This document shows, in pieces, positions 5,254 to 48,000 of a stretch of DNA of 48,000 nucleotides. Numbering within the stretch: the first letter of the stretch is position 1; every line of letters begins with the position of its first letter. Source of the stretch: Minisyncoccota bacterium (GTDB lineage Bacteria > Patescibacteriota > Minisyncoccia > Phycocordibacterales > UBA9973); NCBI GenBank assembly GCA_041663005.1, contig JBAZRK010000001.1, forward strand, positions 288,734 through 336,733, in the 5' to 3' direction. The position numbers and the translations under genes were made by a program. The notes beneath the pieces are model-generated. The model was not told where the DNA came from, searched no databases, and saw nothing but the letters and a program-made list of their open reading frames with translations.

Positions 5254-5988
5254 TTATTGTTTTCTCTCTTCAACCCCCGAATGAATTTGCTCTGGAGAAT
5301 AATTCGGCTTCTCTGGTGCATACCCCAAGATAGTTTTTGCTTTAGAGATATCTATGTGAGGGACTTCATCGACGATACTAAAAGCTTCATACCAAAACTC
5401 CTTCGGGTATTCGAGCGCAAATTTAATAGCCTGGATGGCATTGTTTATACTTACACTTGTCCCAAGGAATACTTTATTAATCGGCCCAAACCTTAAAGCC
5501 ACCGTTTCAAATTTTTTATTGAGTCCATACCACGCCACTACCTGCTCAGCCATTACTTTACTCATATGGTAAGACAGGTCTACATCACGACAAGAAAGTT
5601 TGTCCGCAGATAGATATTGAGAAACAAATTTTTGATTTTCAGTTATTGGTACATCGAACAGTATTCCTTTCTCGATACCATATATTGTCGTAGAGCTTGC
5701 ATACACAACTCGCTTAATTTTATTTTCTTGAGCTGCCTTTAGTACATTGTGAGTACCCAGCACATTCGTATTTAAATAATCATCAAAAGACTTCCCTTCA
5801 ACTGGTTTAGGTATAGCGGCCAAATGCACGACTTGATCACATCCTTTCATTTTTTCACTAAGTTGTTCAAAATCTTGAATATCAAATCCATCTTTTATAT
5901 CAAAACCTACGATTTCAAAAGAAGCTTTGTATTTTTTTACAAACTCGCTGCCTAGATATCCCTTATCGCCAGTTATTAATATTTTCAT
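5254..5988 (-). CDS. NAD-dependent epimerase/dehydratase (extended SDR)
   Basis: MKILITGDKGYLG, VVHLAA, N.LGT.NVL, YHMSK (YxxxK). Start at MKILITG. Confidence 0.9.
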   Translation of the reverse strand: MKILITGDKGYLGSEFVKKYKASFEIVGFDIKDGFDIQDFEQLSEKMKGCDQVVHLAAIPKPVEGKSFDDYLNTNVLGTHNVLKAAQENKIKRVVYASSTTIYGIEKGILFDVPITENQKFVSQYLSADKLSCRDVDLSYHMSKVMAEQVVAWYGLNKKFETVALRFGPINKVFLGTSVSINNAIQAIKFALEYPKEFWYEAFSIVDEVPHIDISKAKTILGYAPEKPNYSPEQIHSGVEERKQ

Positions 5989-6012
5989 AATTTCATTATA
6001 CAAGTATTTACA

Positions 6013-18593: not shown

Positions 18594-20111
18594 ATGGAGC
18601 AAAAAAATCAACAAAAGAATACAGCGTCACGCCCACCTATTGTGGTGGTTATGGGGCATATCGACCACGGTAAGTCCACTCTCCTAGACTACATCAGGAA
18701 AACCAATATCGTCGATAGTGAGACAGGCGGAATTACTCAAACAATTTCCGCTTATGAAGTTGTACATAAAGACGAAGCGGGCCTAGAGAAAAAAATAACC
18801 TTCCTCGACACTCCCGGACACGAGGCCTTTTCGAAAATGCGCGAGCGTGGGGCCTTGATAGCTGACATCGCCATCTTGGTTGTTTCTGCCGAAGACGGCG
18901 TTAAGCCCCAGACCATTGAAGCATGGAAAACAATAGCGGAGTCAAAAATTCCGTGCATTGTAGCCATCAATAAAATAGACAAGCCAGGAGCGAACATCGA
19001 AAAAACGAAAATCGAACTCGCCGAGAATGAAATTTACCTGGAGAACTATGGCGGCCAGATACCTGTCGCGGAAATTTCCGCCAAGGTGGGCACCGGCGTC
19101 GACAACCTACTTTCGCTTATACTTATCCTAGCCGAGGTGGAGAATTTTACAGGCAACGCTTCCTCGGAAGCGTCCGGTTTCGTAATTGAGGTAAACCTGG
19201 ATTCTCGCCGAGGCATTTTAGGAACTCTCGTATTAAAGGATGGCACATTAAAGAAAGGTATGACTGTCGCCGTCGAAGACACCACTTGTTCGACACGCAT
19301 AATGGAGAATTTCAAGGGCGAGGTTATAGGAGAAGCCACTTTCTCCTCCCCTATTCGCATCGTAGGCTTCGACAAGATGCCTCGAGTCGGTGCCGAGTTT
19401 ATTTCTTTTGATAAAAAGTCTGATGCTGAAAAATTTGCCAAAAATTGGAAGCTGGAAAAGAGTAAGGACGCTGCGAAGAAAAGCTCTGATAGCGCCGAAG
19501 CCGATAAAAAGATATTACCGATAATTCTCAAAGCTGACGTTGCCGGCTCGCTTGAAGCTATTGCCAAAGAAATTGCCAAAATTAAAAGCGAAAGTGCAGA
19601 ATTTCGCATCGTGGCTTCAGGTGTGGGCCCAATAACCGAATCCGACATCAAGGGCATCTCGGGAGGCTCCGACGCGCTCGTAATAGGCTTCAATGTTAAA
19701 ACAGACCGCAGTGCACACGAAGTCGCCGAGCAACGAGGTATAACCATAACCAACTTCGACATAATATACAAACTTGCAGAATGGCTCGTGACAGAGATGG
19801 AGGACAAGCGTCCCAAGGTTGAAACTTCCGAAACAGTCGGACGCGCGAAAATTATTCGCGCCTTCAGTAGAACCAAGGAGAGACAGATTGTGGGAGGCAA
19901 GGTTATGGAAGGTGAACTCAAATTAAACAGCGTTGTGAAAATTATGCGCCGTGACTTCGAAATAGGCCGCGGTAAAATTGTAAACCTAGAAAAAAGCAAG
20001 GCAAAAGTAAGCTCTGTGGAAGAAGGCGCAGAGTTCGGAATGATGGTTGAGTCCAAGATAGAGATAGTGCAGGGCGATGTTATCGAATCCTTTACAATTG
20101 TTAAAAAGTAA
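18594..20111 (+). CDS. infB: Translation initiation factor IF-2, lacking the long N-terminal domain
   Basis: [50 protein letters not shown]; 505 aa. Confidence 0.97.
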
Positions 20112-20122
20112 CCCTCGAAACT

Positions 20123-20443
20123 ATGCCTAACCGAAACGAAAAAGTTGCCAACACTATCAAAGAGCTCGCGGCTGAATTTCTGGGTCGAGAGAATAACAAC
20201 ACTTCACTTATAACTGTTACCGGAGCAACTGCTTCCCCTGACCTGAAACGTGCGACGGTGTACATCACCGTACTTCCAAATACCAAAGAAACCGAAGCTC
20301 TCGCCTTCACTAAGCGCCGACGTGGTGATTTCCGAGAATTTTTAAAAAAGAATCTTCCTATTAAAACGATCCCTTTTCTCGACTTCGCTATTGATCTTGG
20401 TGAAAAGAACCGCCAAAAAATCGACGAGCTCCTACGTCAGTAA
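20123..20443 (+). CDS. rbfA: Ribosome-binding factor A
   Basis: Follows infB; ITVTGATASPDLKRATVYI..IPFLDFAID. Confidence 0.9.
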   Translation: MPNRNEKVANTIKELAAEFLGRENNNTSLITVTGATASPDLKRATVYITVLPNTKETEALAFTKRRRGDFREFLKKNLPIKTIPFLDFAIDLGEKNRQKIDELLRQ

Positions 20444-23383: not shown

Positions 23384-23565
23384 GGATGGTTTGCTTACAA
23401 AGTGGCTGAAATATCGGCCCCCTCGTGAGCAAACCATCCCAGCAAAAGCGTCCGACACGCTTGTCCTTCCGTAGCTCGTAGCGAAGGAGGATAGTCGGAA
23501 CGCTAGGAGTTTTAGAGTTTCAGAAGTTAGACACACTTACCGCGCCTCGAAAGGGCGCAAGGAGG
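23384..23565 (+). ncRNA. Highly structured ~220-nt 5' leader (putative cis-regulatory RNA)
   Basis: 14-bp stem 23384-97/23426-39 with inner hairpin; stem 23447-56/23494-504; GAAA hairpin 23542-58; AAGGAGG at 23559-65. Confidence 0.5.
23463..23492. repeat. REP-like hairpin, family A copy 1
   Basis: GTCCTTCCGTAGCTCGTAGCGAAGGAGGAT; shares GTCCT head and TAGCGAAGGAGGAT tail with 45556-45583. Confidence 0.7.
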
Positions 23566-23569
23566 CGTT

Positions 23570-24493
23570 ATGCATTTTCAGCGACCGACGAATCATGGTC
23601 GGCAACCCCGACCACCGGCGGAAGAGCCGCCACACATCACCGTCCACTCGGTGGAAACTGAGATTCACGGCGTGTACGATGTGTACGCGACCGTGACACG
23701 GGGCATCAGCCCCGTGAAAGATGTCCTGGTCATTTTCCGCGTCGACGGTAAAGCCGTAGACGCGCCCTGTCACACGAGTGACAAGGGTGTCGCTCAGGTC
23801 GAGCTGAAGCTGAACGCCAAGCTCGACCCGCGACAGACCGACGACCCCGACGAGCCGGAAGTGTATCACGAGTACACCGTGTCAGCGAACATCGCCAACA
23901 CGAACACTTCAGCGGAGGATCGCATCTTGGTTCTGCCCAAGGAAGAGAAGGACCTCACGAAGTGGCAGCACTTCATGATGGTCGCCTTCCTGGTCCTGTT
24001 TGTTTTGTTGGGACCGGGAACTTGGTGGCTCAAGGCCACCTTCTTGATTGCCACTCTCCTCATCGTGAAGATCCTGGCAACCAAGCGCGGTAAAACTTTC
24101 AGATACGCGATGTGGGAGGAGAACAACTGGATTTTCTTTGCCGTAGTTGGAATGTCGATCGTGTCCGGACTCATGGCATACATGAATCCGATAAGGCCAC
24201 ATTCCTTCACCGCATTCAGACATCCAGTTTGGGCGTTCTTCAACAAGATGTATTTCGGTAAACTTGCGGGCGGCTGGAGTATGGCCTGCAAGCACCTTCT
24301 CTTCCCGTGGGCTCTTCCCTTCGCATTCGTTGTCTCGTTCTGGGACAATGTTGTCGAGGGGGTTCAACATTGGCGGAGAAAAAAACATTCCGAGTCCAAC
24401 GCGAAGAGCGAGCTAATCACCCACGCCAAATACGACACGCTCTTCGCAATCATCATCAAGGTGCTGAAAGGCATCTTTGGATTTGGGGGGTAA
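23570..24493 (+). CDS. Hypothetical membrane protein with a putative N-terminal Ig-like (Big-1-like) beta domain
   Basis: SD AAGGAGG; beta-rich VYATVT..VLVIFRVDG..TSDKGVAQVEL..YTVSA, then 3-4 TMs. Confidence 0.7.
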   Translation: MHFQRPTNHGRQPRPPAEEPPHITVHSVETEIHGVYDVYATVTRGISPVKDVLVIFRVDGKAVDAPCHTSDKGVAQVELKLNAKLDPRQTDDPDEPEVYHEYTVSANIANTNTSAEDRILVLPKEEKDLTKWQHFMMVAFLVLFVLLGPGTWWLKATFLIATLLIVKILATKRGKTFRYAMWEENNWIFFAVVGMSIVSGLMAYMNPIRPHSFTAFRHPVWAFFNKMYFGKLAGGWSMACKHLLFPWALPFAFVVSFWDNVVEGVQHWRRKKHSESNAKSELITHAKYDTLFAIIIKVLKGIFGFGG

Positions 24494-24495
24494 TC

Positions 24496-24951
24496 GTGAA
24501 GAAACTCACAATGGTTTTACTCGTCATTCTCCTTGCTTCCGGCGGCTGTAAGTGGCTTCCGGCGGCGCTGAAGTCCTATCAGCAGGAGTACGATGAGCTC
24601 GCCGCTCAACCAGCGGCAACGACCGCCGCCGATGCCAAGAAGCAGTACGCGGAGGTCGACGAGTTCGTCAAACGCCTCAAGGCAGAAGATCAAGAGAATC
24701 TGCCTGACGGATTGCTTGTGAAAGCAGTTGAGTTAGACGCAAAGCGTTTGGCTCACTGCGCTTCCCTCGCCTTCCAAGAGAAAGCTAAGGGCGTTTGGGA
24801 GTGGGCCAAGAAAAAGCTCCACTCCGACGGAGTGTCGCCGAAGGAAGCGGCCAAGATTGAACCTGAACTTGCGGGCCCTCTCAAGGCTGCGACATCGACA
24901 ACTACAACGACATCCACCGAGCCCGACGACGACCGTTCGCACTACAGATAA
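24496..24951 (+). CDS. Hypothetical lipoprotein
   Basis: GTG start 2 nt after the upstream stop; MKKLTMVLLVILLASGGC lipobox-like signal. Confidence 0.7.
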   Translation: MKKLTMVLLVILLASGGCKWLPAALKSYQQEYDELAAQPAATTAADAKKQYAEVDEFVKRLKAEDQENLPDGLLVKAVELDAKRLAHCASLAFQEKAKGVWEWAKKKLHSDGVSPKEAAKIEPELAGPLKAATSTTTTTSTEPDDDRSHYR

Positions 24952-25006
24952 ATCGTAGGGCGGTAAGCTCGAGAGAGCCCCGCCCGACTAACTTCGGAGA
25001 TATACA

Positions 25007-26083
25007 ATGGTGGGATTTATCATCGGACTTGCGACAGCATTTGGGATGTTTTGGTTCACAGAGATCGGCATCGGCTGGTCTCTGGTCGCCGGACTTGTCG
25101 TCGGCCTGCTTTTCCACTTCAAGGTGGGAACAGGTGGAACGACTACGGGCGGCGGCGGCTTCTTCAACGGCCTGGGAAGTTTTTTCTCAGGTATCTCCAG
25201 GACAGCCTGGGGAATCGTCGTCGGAGCTGTAGTTTTTTCGGGCCTTCTCATGGCCCTCAGTCGATTCCTTGAAATCTCGCCCGCTAGAGTATCAGAAGAG
25301 ATCCAGAAGTTCGGCTGGAACCCCCTCAACTGGGGTCGCATGGGCGGCCCCGTGGTATTGTTCTTCCTGTGCACGATCGTTCTACTCTTCGCTGCTCAGC
25401 AAGCGGCGCAAGGAAGAACGAAAATCGCAGGATGGATGATCGGCGTTTCAATCGTGTTCGGGATCTTGTGTTTGTATCTGCCGCACACTGCGGCCAAGAT
25501 CCTGCCGTCTGAAAACGGCAAGCCAACCTGGAACGCCACTGACACAGCCGTAGAGTTTCAGCTCACGGCTGTCAACAAGCGCGGAGTCGCACCTGTGGTA
25601 ATCACAGGCGCGACAACTCTTGCGCTAGGCGAGCCGCCCGCGCAGGAAATGAAGAAAGGCGGAGTGTGGGGCGTTTACACAAAACGCTTCGCCACCTGGT
25701 GGTGCGGGGACTGTGCAAATCCCGCACCGAGACACCACGCCTCATCTTCCGCCCCCGCACGGCGGCAATACGAACCGGCTGTCTACACGAAGCCGGTACC
25801 CGTAGTCGAGATGCGTCCCTTCGAGTTTGGTGCAGACGGTTGCACTGTCCCCACTCGACTCGAGAGCAACGCGTCGTTTTACCCAAAAGGAGGCTGGGTG
25901 ACCATTCACCCGCCTCTGCCCGCAAAACCCTGGGACGATGCCCCCGGCATCCGAAATTCCCAGGAAGGCATTGAGAAACCGGCAGGCACGTACTATGTCT
26001 GCCGGCAGACGATGGACCTCGAGGGCAATCCCCTCGAGCCGGGATGGGGTATCGACATCTGGAGTGCATTCCCTGACAAGTAG
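25007..26083 (+). CDS. Hypothetical multi-TM protein with a soluble Pro/Cys-containing C-terminal domain
   Basis: GGAGA 6 nt upstream of ATG; ~5 hydrophobic segments, GTGGTTTGGGG linker. Confidence 0.75.
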   Translation: MVGFIIGLATAFGMFWFTEIGIGWSLVAGLVVGLLFHFKVGTGGTTTGGGGFFNGLGSFFSGISRTAWGIVVGAVVFSGLLMALSRFLEISPARVSEEIQKFGWNPLNWGRMGGPVVLFFLCTIVLLFAAQQAAQGRTKIAGWMIGVSIVFGILCLYLPHTAAKILPSENGKPTWNATDTAVEFQLTAVNKRGVAPVVITGATTLALGEPPAQEMKKGGVWGVYTKRFATWWCGDCANPAPRHHASSSAPARRQYEPAVYTKPVPVVEMRPFEFGADGCTVPTRLESNASFYPKGGWVTIHPPLPAKPWDDAPGIRNSQEGIEKPAGTYYVCRQTMDLEGNPLEPGWGIDIWSAFPDK

Positions 26084-26108
26084 TTCTTCGTTCTTTAGAG
26101 TAAAATCC

Positions 26109-28128: not shown

Positions 28129-28135
28129 AGTTTTA

Positions 28136-28546
28136 TTATACCTCAGCTGTAAGACCTATCCAAGCGCCATTGAAGCCGAAGAGCGTCAGAATAGTGCTAA
28201 TAATAAGCCAGGCCGCTACCGCGATAATAAGCCCTAAAACTGTGTTGGTGAAAATCTTTTTCGCTTTAGCCCTCTCCCCTGACGCCTCTCCACCCGAGGT
28301 AACCATAATTACCCCAGCGTAAGCGAACATTATGGCCGCAATAGGCACGAACATTTTAAACAAGAGAAAGTCGATAATTTTATTAACCATCTCCATTAAC
28401 GCATTGAAATCACAAGGGTCTGTGAGAGTGTTGGTGCACGGAACAAGGCCAGGTTCCGGCACAGGGTCTTCGGCTAATGACACGAAAGGCATCACGAGCA
28501 TGAGCGCGAGAACTAAGAAGGTAACAAAATGGGTAATTTTTTTCAT
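28136..28546 (-). CDS. TrbC/VirB2-like pilin
   Basis: GLVPC..PCDF, AIMFAYAG..VTSGGE..AKAKKIFTNTVLGLIIAVAAWLII. Confidence 0.82.
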   Translation of the reverse strand: MKKITHFVTFLVLALMLVMPFVSLAEDPVPEPGLVPCTNTLTDPCDFNALMEMVNKIIDFLLFKMFVPIAAIMFAYAGVIMVTSGGEASGERAKAKKIFTNTVLGLIIAVAAWLIISTILTLFGFNGAWIGLTAEV

Positions 28547-33093: not shown

Positions 33094-33720
33094 TTATGCC
33101 TCTTTTAATACTACCACTTCCCCTTCCTTACCTTCCAGGTCTTTCCTCTTGAGTGTTAGCTTATCCACCCGCTCCGCATCTTCTTCTCCCATTTCTTTTA
33201 GGAATGCCTTGAGGGATTTCTCATCGTAGTCCATCGGGATTATAAGTTTCGGTTCAAGTGCGGAGGCAAGCTTCCCGGCAGCCTTAGCATCAAGCATACC
33301 CTCGCCACCTACCGGCACGAAGAGGATATCCGGGCTGTTGATAGCTTCGCGAGACTCTTTGGAAATTTCTGTCTCATCTAGCGCCCCAAGGAAAGCGATA
33401 TTAATTCCATCCAAAGTGAACAAGTAGATGGAATTCATGTATTTCTTGCCTGCAATATTCGCCTCTGAGAGAACACCCTTGATGAAAATTTCTCGAATTT
33501 CATAATCTCCCGGACCCTTTATAACAAACGGCTCACGTTCCCCGTGCGACAACTGTTCCACGCCATTGTAATCCGCGTGGTTCGTGGTTACGAGTGCGAT
33601 GTCTGTTCCGAAGTGCGCTGAGATGCCTGTTTTAGAGGCTTTGCTCACAGGATTAAACGCCAGGACAAGCTCCCCTTGCCCAATCTTAAAAAATTGCTTG
33701 CCGAAATACGTTATTATCAT
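33094..33720 (-). CDS. MBL-fold metallo-hydrolase-like protein (degenerate)
   Basis: MIITYFG..F.I, TTNHADYNG, GPGDYEI, DILFVPVGG, LEPKLIIPM. Confidence 0.8.
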   Translation of the reverse strand: MIITYFGKQFFKIGQGELVLAFNPVSKASKTGISAHFGTDIALVTTNHADYNGVEQLSHGEREPFVIKGPGDYEIREIFIKGVLSEANIAGKKYMNSIYLFTLDGINIAFLGALDETEISKESREAINSPDILFVPVGGEGMLDAKAAGKLASALEPKLIIPMDYDEKSLKAFLKEMGEEDAERVDKLTLKRKDLEGKEGEVVVLKEA

Positions 33721-33912: not shown

Positions 33913-35004
33913 ATGCGAAAAGAAGAAACAGTAACAGTGGAAGAAAATACGGTTCTAAGTTCGGTCGTTGACCGCAGCCAGAGCCGACCGGAAGTGGACT
34001 CATTAATTGAAGGGTCTGTTATCCTCGTTGATAAATCATCCGTATACGTAGACCTAGCGCCCTGGGGCACAGGTATAATCTACGGCCGCGAGTTTATGAA
34101 CGCCAAAGATGTCATCAACAAGATGAGCATTGGCGATGTCATAAAAGCGAAAATAGTAGACGCCGAAAACGAAGAGGGCTACATCGAGCTTTCATTAAAA
34201 GAAGCCAAGCAAGCCCTCGCCTGGAGCGAAGCTGAGAAGGCCATCCGAGCGAAGACTATCCTATCTCTTGAAGTTAAAGACGCGAACAAAGGCGGACTTA
34301 TTTTGGAATGGCAGGGCATCCAGGGATTCTTGCCTGCTTCCCAGCTCAAGCCTGAACACTATCCTAGGGTTCTAGACTCTGATAAAGATAAGATATTAAA
34401 AGAGCTCAAGAAGTTAGTCGGTGAGAAAATTTCCGTTATGATTATTTCAACCTTGCCGAAAGAAGGCAAGCTTATTTTCTCCGAGAAAGAAAACAATCCT
34501 GAGGAAAAGAAAGAAATTCTCTCGAAATATTCCATCGGCGATACACTTGAATGCATTATTGCCGGTATCGTAGACTTCGGCGTATTCCTTAAGCTCGAAG
34601 ACGGACTGGAAGGTTTGGTTCACATCTCTGAACTTGATTGGGGTTTGGTAGAAGACCCTAGAAGTATGTTTAAGGTGGGTGAGAAGGTGAAGGCGAAAGT
34701 TATCGAAATTAAAGACGGTAAGGTTTCGCTCTCGCTTAAAGCCCTCAAGGAAAATCCTTGGAAAGAATTTGAGGGTAAATTAAAGAAGGGCGACATCATT
34801 AAAGGTGTTGTCATCAAGTACAACAAACACGGCGCGCTGGTATCCATCAAGGAAGGCGTAGCGGGCTTGGTACACAACTCCACTTTCCCTTCAGAAATTA
34901 AACTCAGGGAAACTCTGGAGCTAGGAAAGAATTACAATTTCCAAATTACCTTGTTTGAGCCTAAGGATCAGAAAATGACCCTGGTTCACCTCGACGAAAA
35001 ATAA
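33913..35004 (+). CDS. rpsA: 30S ribosomal protein S1, short form (about 4 S1 domains)
   Basis: GYIELSLK, NKGGL..GFLPASQL, DFGVF..EGLVHISEL, KVSLSLK. Confidence 0.9.
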   Translation: MRKEETVTVEENTVLSSVVDRSQSRPEVDSLIEGSVILVDKSSVYVDLAPWGTGIIYGREFMNAKDVINKMSIGDVIKAKIVDAENEEGYIELSLKEAKQALAWSEAEKAIRAKTILSLEVKDANKGGLILEWQGIQGFLPASQLKPEHYPRVLDSDKDKILKELKKLVGEKISVMIISTLPKEGKLIFSEKENNPEEKKEILSKYSIGDTLECIIAGIVDFGVFLKLEDGLEGLVHISELDWGLVEDPRSMFKVGEKVKAKVIEIKDGKVSLSLKALKENPWKEFEGKLKKGDIIKGVVIKYNKHGALVSIKEGVAGLVHNSTFPSEIKLRETLELGKNYNFQITLFEPKDQKMTLVHLDEK

Positions 35005-36698: not shown

Positions 36699-36727
36699 TT
36701 GCAAAGAAAGGTTAAAACGAGTAGTAT
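36699..36727 (+). promoter_or_regulatory. sigma70 promoter with leaderless geometry, preceded by a DnaA box (TGTGGATAA, 36677-36685)
   Basis: TTGCAA-17 nt-TAGTAT-6 nt-ATG(36734). Confidence 0.6.
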
Positions 36728-42497: not shown

Positions 42498-44967
42498 GAC
42501 ACTTTTTGTATTTTTTGCCACTTCCACAAGGACAAGGGTTATTTCTTCCTACGGCGTCTTCTTTTTTAGCCGTAGAATCTTTCTGTCCTCCCATTTCTGA
42601 CGGTTCTGTATGGCTCGTAATTAAGGTCTGCTTCGGACCCGCTTCTTCTTTTTTAATAGCAGATGCGGCTTCGGTGTTTATGGAACTCACCATAGAAGCT
42701 ACTTGCTCCTTGAATACTGCTTCCATTTCTTTAAACATCTGTAATCCTTCTTTCTTGTACTCTACAATAGGCTCACGCTGGCCATAGGCGCGCAAGTTTA
42801 CCGAAGAGCGCAGGTAGTCCATCGCTTCCAGGTGTTCCATCCAGAGATTGTCGGTAGAATACAGTGCTATGCGGCGAACAGTTTCGAAAAATACCGCTTC
42901 TCCCAATTTTTCTTTCTTTTCTTCTATTGTTTTCTCTAGGCCATCCCTGTCAGCGGCAACATCTTTCAATAATTCTTCGACTCTTTCCTTGTCGGCTCGG
43001 AGCATTTTCTGACGTCTCTCGTAAATAATCTTTCGCTGGTGATTCATCACGTCGTCATACTCGAGGGTATGCTTACGCGCGTCGAAATGAAAGCCTTCAA
43101 TTTTTGCTTGAGCGCCCTCGAGCGTTCGGGAAATAAAGCGATTTTCGATAGGTTGGTCTTCCGGAATACCAAACTTCCCCATCATATTTTTAATCCTCTC
43201 GGCTCCGAATATACGCATTAAATCGTCTTCGAGAGACACGTAGAACTGAGTTGCACCCGGGTCCCCTTGTCTACCTGAGCGTCCTCGTAGCTGGTTGTCG
43301 ATACGTCTAGCTTCGTGCCTCTCAGTACCGAGCACGAACAAACCGCCCGCCTCTTTTACAAACTGATATTCTTCATCAGTGTGCGGATTACCGCCGAGCT
43401 TAATGTCGATTCCGCGTCCGGCCATGTTGGTGGCGATTGTTACCGCACCGCGCTTTCCCGCCTGGGCGATAATTTCACCTTCCTTCTCGTGATTCTTGGC
43501 GTTCAGTATTGTATGCTGCACACCTTCTTGTCGCAGATACACAGAGAGAAGCTCGTTTTTCTCGATGGAAATTGTACCTATGAGCACTGGCTGGCCCTTC
43601 TCGTTTAGTTCTTTAATTTTTTTCGCTATAGCTTGGAGCTTCCCCTTCTCTGTCTGGAAAATAAGGTCGTTGTGGTCGATACGAACAACTGGTTTGTTGG
43701 TCGGAATCACAATTACATCAAGTCCGTAGACTTTCAGGAATTCTTCCGCTGAGGTTGCCGCGGTTCCGGTCATTCCCGAAAGCTTTTTATAGAATCTGAA
43801 ATAGTTCTGGAAAGTAATCGAGCCCGAAGAGCGAGTTTCTTTTTCAATTTTCACTCCTTCTTTAGCCTCAATCGCCTGGTGAATGCCCTCTGACCAGCGC
43901 CTGCCTGGCTGAAGTCTGCCGGTAAAGGGATCCACAATTATAACTTCCCCTTCTTTCACTACGTAATCCTTATCTTTTTCGAAAATTGCCTGAGCTTTTA
44001 CAGCAGTTTCCAGGTGGTGTACATATTTAATACCCTTTTCTGTATAAATGTTGTCGATACCGAGCAATTGTTCAGCTTTCGAGATGCCGACGTCCGTCAG
44101 GCTGATAGCTCGCATTTTCTCATCGACGATATAGTCCGTCTCACGTTTCAATTGTTTCGCAATCTGAGAAAATTTCACGTAAAAATCTTCGGAGTCTCCG
44201 GACTGGGAAGAGATAATTAACGGTGTTCTGGCCTCGTCAATTAAAATAGAGTCAACTTCGTCTACAATCGCGAAATGGTGCTCACGTTGAACCATATTTT
44301 CCACTTGAGTAACCAGGTTGTCGCGCAAGTAATCGAATCCGAATTCGTTGTTGGTTCCGTACGTTACATCAGCCAGGTAAGCTTCTTTCCTGCTGCATGG
44401 TTTCAAAAAATCGTAAACAATTTTAAATTCACCGACTTGGTCGCGTTCTTTGTCTTCTTCGGTGTGTTTGGCATCGTATAGATAAGAAACGTTTTGCGAA
44501 TTAATTACACCTACAGAAAGTCCGAGAAAATTATAAACTTGCCCCATCAGCACGGCGCCAATACGTGAAAGGTAATCGTTCACAGTAACTATGTGCACTC
44601 CGTGACCCGACAAAGCGTTCAGATATGCGGGCAAAACTCCCACTAATGTTTTACCCTCCCCTGTTCTCATCTCGGCGATTTTGCCGAAGTGAAGTGCGAG
44701 ACCCCCCACTAGCTGCACATCATAATGACGCTCGCCGAGGTTCCGTTTAGCGGCCTCGCGGACCAGTGCATATGCTTCAGGTAAAATAGAGTCCAAGTCC
44801 TCGCCCTTGGCAAGTCTATCCTTGAATTCTAACGTCTTTTTAGGGAAATCAGTATCTTCCAAAGCTGCCATTTCAGCCTCCAGGGCGTTAATTTTAGCGA
44901 CTAAGGGCTTGGTTTTAGCTATAAATCGGGAGCTTTCGTCACCGAAGATTTTATTGAAAATTGCCAT
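42487..44967 (-). CDS. secA: Preprotein translocase subunit SecA
   Basis: AEMRTGEGKT, IVDEVDSILIDEARTPL, ATNMAGRG, QLRGRSGRQGDPG, C-terminal CPCGSGKKYKKCHG. Confidence 0.99.
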   Translation of the reverse strand: MAIFNKIFGDESSRFIAKTKPLVAKINALEAEMAALEDTDFPKKTLEFKDRLAKGEDLDSILPEAYALVREAAKRNLGERHYDVQLVGGLALHFGKIAEMRTGEGKTLVGVLPAYLNALSGHGVHIVTVNDYLSRIGAVLMGQVYNFLGLSVGVINSQNVSYLYDAKHTEEDKERDQVGEFKIVYDFLKPCSRKEAYLADVTYGTNNEFGFDYLRDNLVTQVENMVQREHHFAIVDEVDSILIDEARTPLIISSQSGDSEDFYVKFSQIAKQLKRETDYIVDEKMRAISLTDVGISKAEQLLGIDNIYTEKGIKYVHHLETAVKAQAIFEKDKDYVVKEGEVIIVDPFTGRLQPGRRWSEGIHQAIEAKEGVKIEKETRSSGSITFQNYFRFYKKLSGMTGTAATSAEEFLKVYGLDVIVIPTNKPVVRIDHNDLIFQTEKGKLQAIAKKIKELNEKGQPVLIGTISIEKNELLSVYLRQEGVQHTILNAKNHEKEGEIIAQAGKRGAVTIATNMAGRGIDIKLGGNPHTDEEYQFVKEAGGLFVLGTERHEARRIDNQLRGRSGRQGDPGATQFYVSLEDDLMRIFGAERIKNMMGKFGIPEDQPIENRFISRTLEGAQAKIEGFHFDARKHTLEYDDVMNHQRKIIYERRQKMLRADKERVEELLKDVAADRDGLEKTIEEKKEKLGEAVFFETVRRIALYSTDNLWMEHLEAMDYLRSSVNLRAYGQREPIVEYKKEGLQMFKEMEAVFKEQVASMVSSINTEAASAIKKEEAGPKQTLITSHTEPSEMGGQKDSTAKKEDAVGRNNPCPCGSGKKYKKCHGQ

Positions 44968-44990
44968 AAATTACATCTTAGCATAAAAAC

Positions 44991-46424: not shown

Positions 46425-47336
46425 TTATAAACTAAGACTTCTTTCAAGGATATGCGCGACAACATCCTCTATTTTCGTCCCAGCCAGTTCGCACGTCTCG
46501 GCGAAGTGTGATCCTGCCTTCACCTCAGGAACATTTTCAAATTCCAAAAGATAAACTTTCCTCCTCGGTGTAAGCAAGAAATCGGATTTTAGGTAATGGC
46601 CGGCATTTAAGTGCTGGTGCAAGTGCTTGGCCAGTGAATACAATAGCTCTTTCTCCTCCGAGGAAAAGGCTCCGAAGGTATTACTAAGCGGGAAAACGTA
46701 GACATCTTCGTTCCGAAAATCGGGCATCGAGTGGATTGAGGCAATTTTACCAGAAATAAATTCTTCAACTATTAAACTCTCCCCGTGATTCACTCCGTCC
46801 TCTATGGCATCCACCAATTCGGGAAAGGTCTTTGCCAGGTGGATACCCATATTCGCATCGGGGGTAAAAGATTTAACTAGCCAAGGCGCGCCGAATTTCT
46901 CGTGGATTTCTTTGGCTTTTTTGAGTGCGTATTTCTCTCTCGGGCCATCGAAGTCTTTCTGGTAGAGAGGAATGAGTATAGTCCGCGGTAAGGATACCTC
47001 TACGCCCCGCAGATGTTCTCGCAAAAGCTCGCGGCTGCCTTTGAGCGCTGAGAAAAACGGCGCAGGCGATATATGCGGTATCGAAAGGTTATCGAGCGAA
47101 TGTGAAAAATGGGGGTGCGCCACGTTCCAAACCAAGTCCACCCGGTGCATGAGATCGGCAAGGGCGACTGGCCGGCCCGCTACATGCCACAGGCCTTCTT
47201 TGTCGACCAGAATATCTACAGGTTTATATTTTTCGGAAAAATTTTCGGCAAGGTAGCTAATAATCTCGCCGCCTTTCTTGAGCGAATGAAAATAATTCTC
47301 CCCTGCTCCCCCCCGCAAAACTCCTATGCGTTTCAT
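46425..47336 (-). CDS. Degenerate D-alanine--D-alanine ligase-like ATP-grasp protein
   Basis: MKRIGVLRGG, LIVEEFISG, SDFLL..VYLLE..VP. Start at MKRIG. Confidence 0.7.
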   Translation of the reverse strand: MKRIGVLRGGAGENYFHSLKKGGEIISYLAENFSEKYKPVDILVDKEGLWHVAGRPVALADLMHRVDLVWNVAHPHFSHSLDNLSIPHISPAPFFSALKGSRELLREHLRGVEVSLPRTILIPLYQKDFDGPREKYALKKAKEIHEKFGAPWLVKSFTPDANMGIHLAKTFPELVDAIEDGVNHGESLIVEEFISGKIASIHSMPDFRNEDVYVFPLSNTFGAFSSEEKELLYSLAKHLHQHLNAGHYLKSDFLLTPRRKVYLLEFENVPEVKAGSHFAETCELAGTKIEDVVAHILERSLSL

Positions 47337-47363
47337 ATAAATAATTATAACACTAAAAAGCAA

Positions 47364-47386
47364 AAAGCCGTCCTCCGGCCGGCTTT
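47364..47386 (-). terminator. Intrinsic terminator
   Basis: On minus: AAAGCCG-9 nt-CGGCTTT followed by TTGCTTTT. Confidence 0.65.
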
Positions 47387-47403
47387 CGCGCGGTTGGTGA
47401 CGG

Positions 47404-47598
47404 CTACGAGATGGAAACTGCTCCGTGGAGCACGATCGAGTTGTAGTCGAATTCACCCTTTCTCTCGTGACACCAAGGGCAACTCAGCTCCCCTTTTACC
47501 TCAAGGGGCTGGGGGGCAAGATCCTCGACCTCGCCACACCAGTGGCAATTGCTGTGCGTGCAGCGAACTTTCGTCCGCCAACTTACACGCTTTTTCAT
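47404..47598 (-). CDS. Small Cys-rich (zinc-ribbon-like) protein
   Basis: AAGGAGGT 4 nt before the ATG; CTHSNCHWC..CPWC; own terminator. Confidence 0.6.
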   Translation of the reverse strand: MKKRVSWRTKVRCTHSNCHWCGEVEDLAPQPLEVKGELSCPWCHERKGEFDYNSIVLHGAVSIS

Positions 47599-47648
47599 GT
47601 CGACCTCCTTCTTTTAAGGTTTACTCCCGATTTTAAATTTTGTCAAAC

Positions 47649-47680
47649 AAAAAAACACCCCGCTTGCGCGAGGTGTTTTT
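47649..47680 (-). terminator. Terminator downstream of the 16S rRNA
   Basis: AAAAACACC-loop-GGTGTTTTT with a T-run on the minus strand. Confidence 0.75.
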
Positions 47681-47841
47681 AATTGCTGTACTTTGTTTTG
47701 TTTCGTCCTATAACTTAGAAGTCTTTCCTTCCTGTCAATACGCTTTTTTAAGTCCATAGCATACATAGACTATTGTGTCGTCAATTGAGCGACACAATAC
47801 CGACTCAATAAGTCATCCGATAAATCGGACAACGTGTTTCA

Positions 47842-48000
47842 AATTGAATTAATCCACGAGCAGCTTCCGCTACCCGTGCCTTGTTACGACTTAGTCCCTG
47901 TCACCGAGCTTACCTTAGGACCCGCTTATGCGGATACTTCGGGTACTCCCGGCTCCCTTGACTTGACGGGCGGTGAGTACAAGACTTGAGAACGTATTCA
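47842..48000 (-). rRNA. rrs: 16S rRNA, 3' end (partial)
   Basis: On minus: TGAATACGTT..TTGTACTCACCGCCCGTCA..AAGTCGTAACAAGG, helix 45 CACGGGTAGC-GGAA-GCTGCTCGTG, then GATTA; the exact 3' end is uncertain. Confidence 0.97.

Follow-up and report, generated by a model that had tools for sequence, protein, structure and literature searches.

The 16S rRNA gene at the end of the window (the whole 48,000-nucleotide stretch of DNA analysed here) lacks the anti-Shine–Dalgarno (anti-SD) sequence, and we consider it very probable that this is a genuine, lineage-fixed loss in an organism that initiates translation independently of SD pairing, using leaderless mRNAs for a large share of its transcription units and otherwise accessible, A/U-rich leaders. 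SD:anti-SD pairing is the textbook bacterial route to start codons. Because the CCUCC core has been lost, this ribosome would be unable to select start codons by such pairing, and a deep, species-rich clade without the rRNA half of the pair offers a natural experiment in SD-free initiation.

The 3′ end of the 16S rRNA gene

Read along the minus strand, positions 48000–47842 matched Rfam family RF00177 over model positions 1363–1533 with a score of 122.9 bits (E = 7.6e-35), which exceeds the gathering score of 50. The match took in the top of helix 44, helix 45 and the GGAA loop that carries the dimethyl-A residues, and the fold of helix 45 was recovered. This segment (47842–48000, minus strand) is the 3′ end of the gene, whose 5′ side is cut by the window and, ~75 nt further on, by the end of the contig, which stops inside the gene and leaves ~234 nt of 16S assembled in total. 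Helix 45 (47855–47878, minus strand) is a 10-bp stem closed by a GGAA loop, CACGGGUAGC-GGAA-GCUGCUCGUG. Immediately 3′ of it the gene reads GGAUUAAUUCAAUUUGAAA in place of GGAUCACCUCCUUU: the bases that follow the helix are GGATTAATTCAATTTG (in a fuller reading, GGAUUAAUUCAAUUUGAAACACG) versus the RF00177 consensus GGAUCACCUCCUUU. The canonical GAUCACCUCCUUU tail with its CCUCC core is absent, the tail being GAUUAAUUCAAUUUG, and its place is taken by a clade-conserved replacement tail, GAUUAAUUCAAUUUGAAA, which contains no CCUCC (47837–47854, minus strand). The initial annotation had described a GGATTA tail replacing a GGATCA-type anti-SD tail after helix 45 and had proposed aligning the gene to an SSU covariance model as a check; the RF00177 alignment bears out that reading, with accurate coordinates, and places the departure from consensus directly after helix 45.

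Elsewhere in the fragment, the 1392–1406 primer site (47966–47980, minus strand) reads GTACTCACCGCCCGT, and upstream of it CCCGGGCC is replaced by CTCAAGTC. The U within this site, at the position equivalent to E. coli A1396, is common to nearly all clade relatives whose alignment covers the site, and the mismatches at the primer site are of a type typical of CPR.

An anti-SD might have been displaced rather than lost, with CCUCC either shifted downstream by an insertion or intron, or retained in another copy of the 16S gene, and CPR 16S genes do often contain insertions (in relatives of this one they lie near position 1400, and one relative contains a group I intron). We regard this explanation as barely credible. 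The minus strand holds no CCTCC from 47842 down to 45577, a stretch that runs past the terminator and two protein genes, and a combined Rfam and CCTCC scan found no 16S sequence resuming downstream of the tail. Moreover, the sequence of the tail is conserved, unlike that of an intron boundary. The terminator in question is an intrinsic one that closes the 16S transcription unit (47651–47680, minus strand; a 13-bp stem and then a T run); the initial annotation, which placed it at 47649–47680, was right that no CCTCC precedes it and that an intron with a displaced 3′ exon is unsupported. The tails of four relatives have a CCUCC 20–26 nt downstream, past the hairpin, which would suit a displaced anti-SD, but in 4/4 the motif lies inside a GC-rich hairpin stem, and we rejected these as candidates.

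Insertions do occur in relatives at other sites of the gene. Three loci (L071, L095 and L104) have 16S insertions directly before CGCCCGUCA, ~120 nt ahead of helix 45, and L135 contains a group I intron (5582–5997 of that locus) as well as a match to group II intron domains (D1–D4) within the same locus. None of these insertions or introns sits at the 3′ tail.

The public sequence data indicate that the junction between helix 45 and the tail is not an assembly artefact. The window derives from a groundwater metagenome, in which its contig is ENA ERZ27249449:k141_962724 (332,839 bp). There were grounds for suspecting a mis-join, or a tail contributed by another organism: the contig ends ~75 nt beyond the window within conserved 16S, a typical spot for assembly trouble; positions 47708–47763 are uncovered in the Logan contigs of runs X1 and X2, and no public indexed run searched for the spacer (47675–47800) holds that stretch; and both the terminator and one trailer element occur in several copies in the X1 and X2 samples (depths of 110–250 versus 14–36). 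The gap at 47708–47763 means that contiguity is supported piecewise rather than by one read set. However, an exact 89-nt unitig spanning 47785–47873 in the public groundwater run X1 (0 mismatches) covers most of helix 45, the entire tail and 52 nt of the trailer at a depth of 32.7, close to the depth of 36 on the adjoining single-copy contig, and an X2 contig leads out of the terminator into spacer sequence that is ~90% identical. In addition, an independent JGI contig from another project (L178) has a 16S segment 100% identical over 215 nt with the same tail, followed in matching order by a homologous spacer, a terminator of the same kind and the ddl-like gene. Even a mis-binned 16S would still show the feature, because 141/142 related loci lack CCUCC (see below). 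An artefact or chimera is thus, in our estimation, extremely improbable.

Past the tail, the transcript would enter a structured trailer. A stable hairpin, GUUGUCCGAU-UU-AUCGGAUGAC, lies directly beyond it (47812–47833, minus strand), and relatives have a hairpin of differing sequence at the same position. Next comes GAGUCGGU (47806–47799), which precedes a conserved hairpin with covarying stems and the palindromic loop CUCAAUUGAG (47772–47798, minus strand); the CUCAAUUGAG-loop hairpin was found in 33/140 clade loci and the GTCGRT motif ahead of it in 94/140. A 42-nt unitig spanning 47772–47813 has a depth of 253 in run X1, versus 33–36 for the genome. An Rfam E-value scan of the trailer returned no family, only sub-threshold matches driven by the terminator, and the CUCAAUUGAG-loop hairpin may be a processing signal. 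The sequence of the terminator at 47651–47680 is itself multi-copy in X1 and X2 (depth 110–220 versus 14–36). Beyond the 16S gene the strand continues through this terminator into protein genes with no 23S, so the rRNA genes are unlinked.

Distribution of the loss and earlier reports

To survey the feature we scanned one genome per GTDB species with a tail-agnostic pattern, GTCGTAACAAGG-N5-GTAGCGGAAGCTGC, which returned 119 loci. Among the 23 of these with the window's helix-45 stem (CACGGG...CUCGUG), none had CCTCC within 20 nt, versus 95 of the 96 with other helix-45 stems, the sole exception being an archaeon with an insertion ahead of its CCTCC. The absence of CCTCC in the former group is therefore not due to chance. 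The 96 loci came from Actinomycetota, Chloroflexota, Magasanikbacteria, true Saccharibacteria and others, and the 23 were labelled Ca. Paceibacteria, Paceibacterota, Nomurabacteria, Zambryskibacteria and Parcubacteria group, among others. We also scanned JGI metagenomes, here for the clade's helix 45 plus GGA; only one (L162) of the 119 usable tails was canonical. Pooling the two scans, 141/142 loci with the clade's helix 45 lack CCUCC.

Because CCTCC was found in 0/23 GTDB loci and 1/119 JGI loci, loss of the anti-SD is, on these sequence counts, a fixed trait of the whole helix-45 clade. The sequence of helix 45 is invariant in 130/130 aligned clade sequences, which makes it, at the level of sequence, diagnostic of the anti-SD-less clade. 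The initial annotation had observed the anti-SD-less tail of this one gene, which we confirm; neither the fixation of the loss across the clade, nor the conservation of the tail, nor the −10 box ahead of the ATG that is the dominant positive signal at gene starts (see below) was apparent to it. The 215-nt 16S fragment is 98.6% identical to that of a GTDB Ca. Paceibacteria genome (L040), and we place the organism in the Parcubacteria/Paceibacteria by this short fragment and by database labels rather than by phylogeny.

The single canonical tail is at 588–637 of L162, where the clade's helix 45 is followed by GGAUCACCUCCUUUCU, a combination unique among the 142 loci. This locus could represent a basal lineage, a revertant or a chimera, and it would be useful for dating the loss of the anti-SD.

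The loss itself has already been published at the level of the lineage. Tsurumaki et al. (2022; RNA 28:1041; PMC9297842) detected the anti-SD motif in only 48% of Parcubacteria, and reported that those without CCUCCU overlap the group lacking uL1 and that no SD helix is expected in them. These organisms are the same lineage with the same feature as the window's 16S, whose 3′ end is likewise without CCUCCU, and their report bears out the statement in the initial annotation that anti-SD loss is known from CPR lineages. It was limited to the absence of the motif and the overlap with uL1 loss; the replacement tail, the analysis of SD usage and the leaderless promoters are added here. In a broader survey, Amin et al. 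(2018; PMC6107228) listed 128 taxids convincingly without a consensus anti-SD versus 20,495 with one, and CPR are not mentioned among the 128. The leaderless promoter signature and the conserved replacement tail are modest additions beyond this published loss; in the searchable literature we found no paper linking leaderless promoters to Parcubacteria and no description of the conserved replacement tail or of its covarying hairpin.

Gene starts and promoters

We next consider the starts of protein genes, which were assigned by a longest-ORF rule (ATG, at least 100 amino acids) rather than by a trained gene finder. SD 4-mers at −18 to −4 preceded 11% of the 37 window genes, equal to the control region, and 10.8% of 446 clade genes (143 loci, 861 kb) versus 9.2% for the control (p = 0.5). 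Loci with canonical tails, which served as a weak positive control, had SD 4-mers at 21.4% versus 9.4% (p = 0.005). Visible SDs are also scarce in a small set of CPR loci that retain the anti-SD (Magasanikbacteria, and L162 with its canonical tail), although each 8-kb locus offers too few genes to serve as a control; reliance on SDs may thus have fallen before the anti-SD disappeared. The initial annotation had considered this ribosome unable to pair with SDs and had cited the SD-less, A/T-rich starts of infB, rpsA, clpB, typA and secA. It had identified those genes correctly, and their upstream regions are indeed A/U-rich and without an SD; its conclusion is further supported by the lack of CCUCC, of a displaced copy and of SD enrichment in either window or clade genes.

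Could the tail have become one half of a new pair, with AAUUCAAUUUGAAA binding a complementary A/U-rich motif upstream of start codons? Conservation of the tail across the clade would be expected of such a system, and the A/U-rich upstream regions include some tail-like words (for example, AAUUUGAAAU before infB). However, a search for upstream motifs complementary to the actual tail, as had been suggested with the initial annotation, found none enriched among 37 window and 370 clade genes, and at −5 to −15 in particular no tail-complementary motif was enriched. Duplexes of the −25 to −3 region with either the canonical anti-SD or the organism's own tail were weaker than controls in both gene sets, and in the 370 clade genes tail complementarity was depleted relative to far-upstream or in-gene controls (Wilcoxon p > 0.99 for enrichment). 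In the survey of Amin et al. (2018; PMC6107228), too, variant anti-SDs had no matching variant SD. A new SD/anti-SD pair is accordingly a quite improbable account of the tail.

SD-independent initiation, the reading we favour, is accompanied by a distinctive arrangement of promoters. The hexamer TANNNT occurs exactly 6 nt before the ATG of 10/37 window genes (27%; Poisson P = 2e-8) and of 75/446 clade genes (17%) versus a background of 12.2 per position (P = 7e-34); in these genes the extended −10 positions are T in 63% and G in 65%. Within the window, a TATAAT box lies 6 nt upstream of the ATG of gene 28128–27736 (28135–28140, minus strand), and the nine other hexamers with this spacer are at 2258–2253, 4482–4477, 7164–7159, 8588–8583, 9977–9972, 16824–16819, 28558–28553, 36722–36727 and 41295–41290. 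A 7-nt spacer is found for secA (TAAGAT, preceded by TGc; 44975–44980, minus strand; ATG at 44967), for a metallo-beta-lactamase-fold gene (33094–33720) and for the ddl-like gene. The upstream regions of the other genes are 40–47% A and 12–16% G. Because a −10 box 6 nt before the ATG places the transcription start at the A of the AUG, this arrangement, judged only by promoter geometry, is strongly consistent with a signature of leaderless mRNAs.

The ddl-like ORF, listed at 46425–47456, is over-extended by the longest-ORF rule. Its conserved start is the ATG at 47336, which has a TATAAT at 47349–47344 (minus strand) with the 7-nt spacer; in the L178 homologue, 6 nt separate TATAAT from the ATG.

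We envisage that the first genes of transcription units would be translated from leaderless mRNAs, the 5′-terminal AUG being bound directly by the ribosome together with IF2 and initiator tRNA, and that initiation at internal and leadered genes would depend on upstream regions that are A-rich, G-poor and unstructured, with possible help from a four-domain bS1 and from translational coupling. Among the translation genes that we identified with Pfam, infB (18594–20111, plus strand) encodes a short IF2 of 505 amino acids without a long N-terminal region, rbfA (20123–20443, plus strand) lies immediately 3′ of it, and rpsA (33913–35004, plus strand) encodes a bS1 of 363 amino acids with four S1 domains, a candidate recruiter of A/U-rich leaders. 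One practical consequence concerns annotation: gene finders that score SDs will mis-call starts in these genomes, for which a −10-box-plus-6 rule and an A-rich upstream region are better cues.

Two ORFs of the window (47598–47404 and 23570–24493) do have strong SDs, and both are in segments that look foreign to their surroundings. The first belongs to a self-contained cassette (47366–47640, minus strand) between the 16S terminator and the ddl-like gene, with a TTGACA-type promoter-like site, a perfect AAGGAGG SD 6 nt before the ATG, a 64-amino-acid zinc-ribbon-like product (CxxC...CxxC) and its own terminator (47380–47366). Neither L178, which is otherwise syntenic, nor any other locus has this cassette, and it therefore resembles a strain-specific insertion. 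The second ORF, preceded by GCAAGGAGG, lies in an island at 23500–26100 (plus strand) that is 55% GC versus ~44% for the rest of the window and also holds a lipoprotein-like ORF (24497–24951) and a membrane protein (25007–26083); the island was probably acquired horizontally. Neither Pfam nor PHROG returned a match for the SD-bearing ORFs or the GC-rich island. With these two inserted cassettes in mind, one may ask how such a host expresses horizontally acquired, SD-dependent genes. The segment 26176–28546 (minus strand) contains five tandem small genes with T4SS_pilin-like domains (PF18895), adjoining a gene for a solute-binding protein.

The replacement tail and its parallels

The commonest tail in the clade, GGA[AUG][UC]AAUUCAAUUUGAAA, is the form found in the window. 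Variants include GGAACAUAUCCAAUCGGAA, GGAUCAAUUCCAAUUUGGA, GGAAUAUUUCAAGAGAAA and GGAUCAUUUUUUUAAAAA, and conservation among relatives ends near 47837. A second type of tail is found in the same helix-45 clade (in L067, L083, L108, L119, L123, L134 and others), in which GGAUCA is kept and followed by a U-run and an A-run (for example, GGAUCAUUUUUUUAAAAAUG), again without CCUCC.

Within the tail, UUCA-AUU-UGAA forms a candidate mini-hairpin with C/G covariation (47838–47848, minus strand). A hairpin of 3–5 bp is possible at the same place in nearly all clade tails, with arms UUCA/UGAA, UCC/GGA, UUCC/GGAA, UUUC/GAAA or Un/An. Where the 5′ arm contains CC, GG follows 3–9 nt downstream in 11/12 unique tails (the exception being the canonical tail), versus 8/88 single-C tails (Fisher 6e-9, uncorrected for phylogeny). 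The CC form occurs in at least four sequence contexts, and tails with a C-less U-run then show A-runs. Stems of at least 4 bp were present in 85% of tails versus 66% of dinucleotide shuffles, and hairpin energies showed no excess stability over such shuffles (MFE of −1.0 versus −1.2 kcal/mol). Helix 2 was paired in 68% on an ungapped MAFFT alignment (A1) and in 64.5% on a CM-fitted alignment (A2), the fitting having left loops of different length un-re-registered; its covariation score exceeded that of 500/500 shuffles, yet sliding the partner by −1 scored almost equally, because of the U- and A-runs. Taken as comparative sequence evidence, these results make a mini-hairpin in the replacement tail plausible.

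Mammalian mitochondrial 12S rRNA ends shortly past helix 45, and the 16S rRNA might similarly end a few bases beyond that helix, in which case the tail would belong to the trailer rather than to the mature rRNA, and AAUUCAAUUUGAAA with the hairpins that follow would be a processing or termination signal. Because the ribosome would still be without an anti-SD, this reading rivals only the idea of a terminal hairpin. It would fit the marginal thermodynamics of the mini-hairpin, the MFE fold of the whole trailer, which pairs the tail with a downstream AUUGAGU rather than locally, and the stable hairpin that starts within 4 nt of the tail. However, the CC-to-GG covariation suits a local hairpin and not the distal pairing, and we saw no covariation supporting pairing between tail and AUUGAGU in the CC-type relatives inspected (L065, L095 and L110). 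The tail is also abundant in metatranscriptome contigs, with whole-tail unitigs at depths of 715–830 versus 3–225 for those running into trailers, although this comparison is confounded by graph structure. On balance we think it unlikely that the tail is trailer.

We also considered RNA contigs as a map of the mature 3′ end and rejected them: the metatranscriptome unitig ends at 47837–47839 recur in DNA run X1, and they therefore reflect a branch in the de Bruijn graph rather than an RNA end. In nine relatives with a full 16S gene we looked for leader–trailer pairing and for pairing of the 5′ end with the tail. No partner of the tail recurred consistently, and an obvious processing stem appeared in just two of the nine (L083 and L126), far downstream.

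We tentatively propose that a conserved 3–5 bp terminal mini-hairpin of the mature 16S rRNA has taken the place of the single-stranded anti-SD in Paceibacteria, and that it would cap the 3′ end, or hold it in position, in a ribosome adapted to leaderless and unstructured A/U-rich mRNAs; we see this as a real possibility that falls short of being probable. Such a state would be convergent with that of mitochondria and fixed across a large free-living or episymbiotic clade. In the reading we favour overall, GGAUUAAUUCAAUUUGAAA would be kept by selection for another role, most likely as a short hairpin at the terminus, capping or positioning the 3′ end of the 16S rRNA. For work on ribosome structure and 3′ ends, the conserved replacement tail offers a concrete target, and a cultured relative among the Paceibacteria exists, Minisyncoccus archaeiphilus (PMC12281837).

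Era binds GAUCACCUCC beside helix 45, and the majority of CPR have no Era (PMC10582724); Paceibacteria keep rbfA and are mostly without era (PMC12641178). Once Era was lost, GAUCA-CCUCC may have come under weaker constraint, and the C-to-U change that gave GGAUUA here may be one outcome. The co-occurrence of the replacement tail with the reported loss of Era adds to its interest for ribosome biology.

Several known systems share parts of this arrangement. Bacteroidota ribosomes reportedly have a sequestered anti-SD (Jha et al., 2021, NAR), and their SD-independent initiation on A-rich, unstructured leaders resembles what we propose for the leadered genes here; in contrast, Bacteroidota keep CCUCC and mask it with proteins, whereas here the sequence itself is gone. 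Actinobacteria and Deinococcus, which are rich in leaderless mRNAs (Cortes et al., 2013, as cited in PMC12641261), have, as here, a −10 box whose spacing from the start codon is short and constant, and the 6-nt peak was also present in our Actinomycetota and Chloroflexota control loci (11/159 genes). The leaderless-rich Actinobacteria and Deinococcus, however, keep a functional anti-SD and use SDs for their leadered genes, unlike the clade described here. The anti-SD is also gone from some Flavobacteriia (Chryseobacterium, Elizabethkingia, Riemerella and Blattabacterium), Mycoplasma, Ca. Carsonella and Ca. Hodgkinia (Lim et al., 2012; PMC6107228), in which, as here, the 13-nt tail is without CCUCCU and genes have neither an upstream SD nor a compensating variant SD. 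Those bacteria belong to unrelated phyla and represent mostly sporadic or genus-level losses, whereas here the loss has become fixed throughout a deep, species-rich clade, which also conserves the replacement sequence. Mammalian mitochondrial 12S rRNA is likewise without an anti-SD, and mitochondrial start codons lie at or near the mRNA 5′ end; mitochondrial ERAL1/Era recognises helix 45 and adjacent sequence that lacks CCUCC (PMC10582724). The two losses are not homologous events: unlike mitochondria, the clade described here is reportedly mostly without Era, and it keeps a conserved tail of ~19 nt past helix 45.
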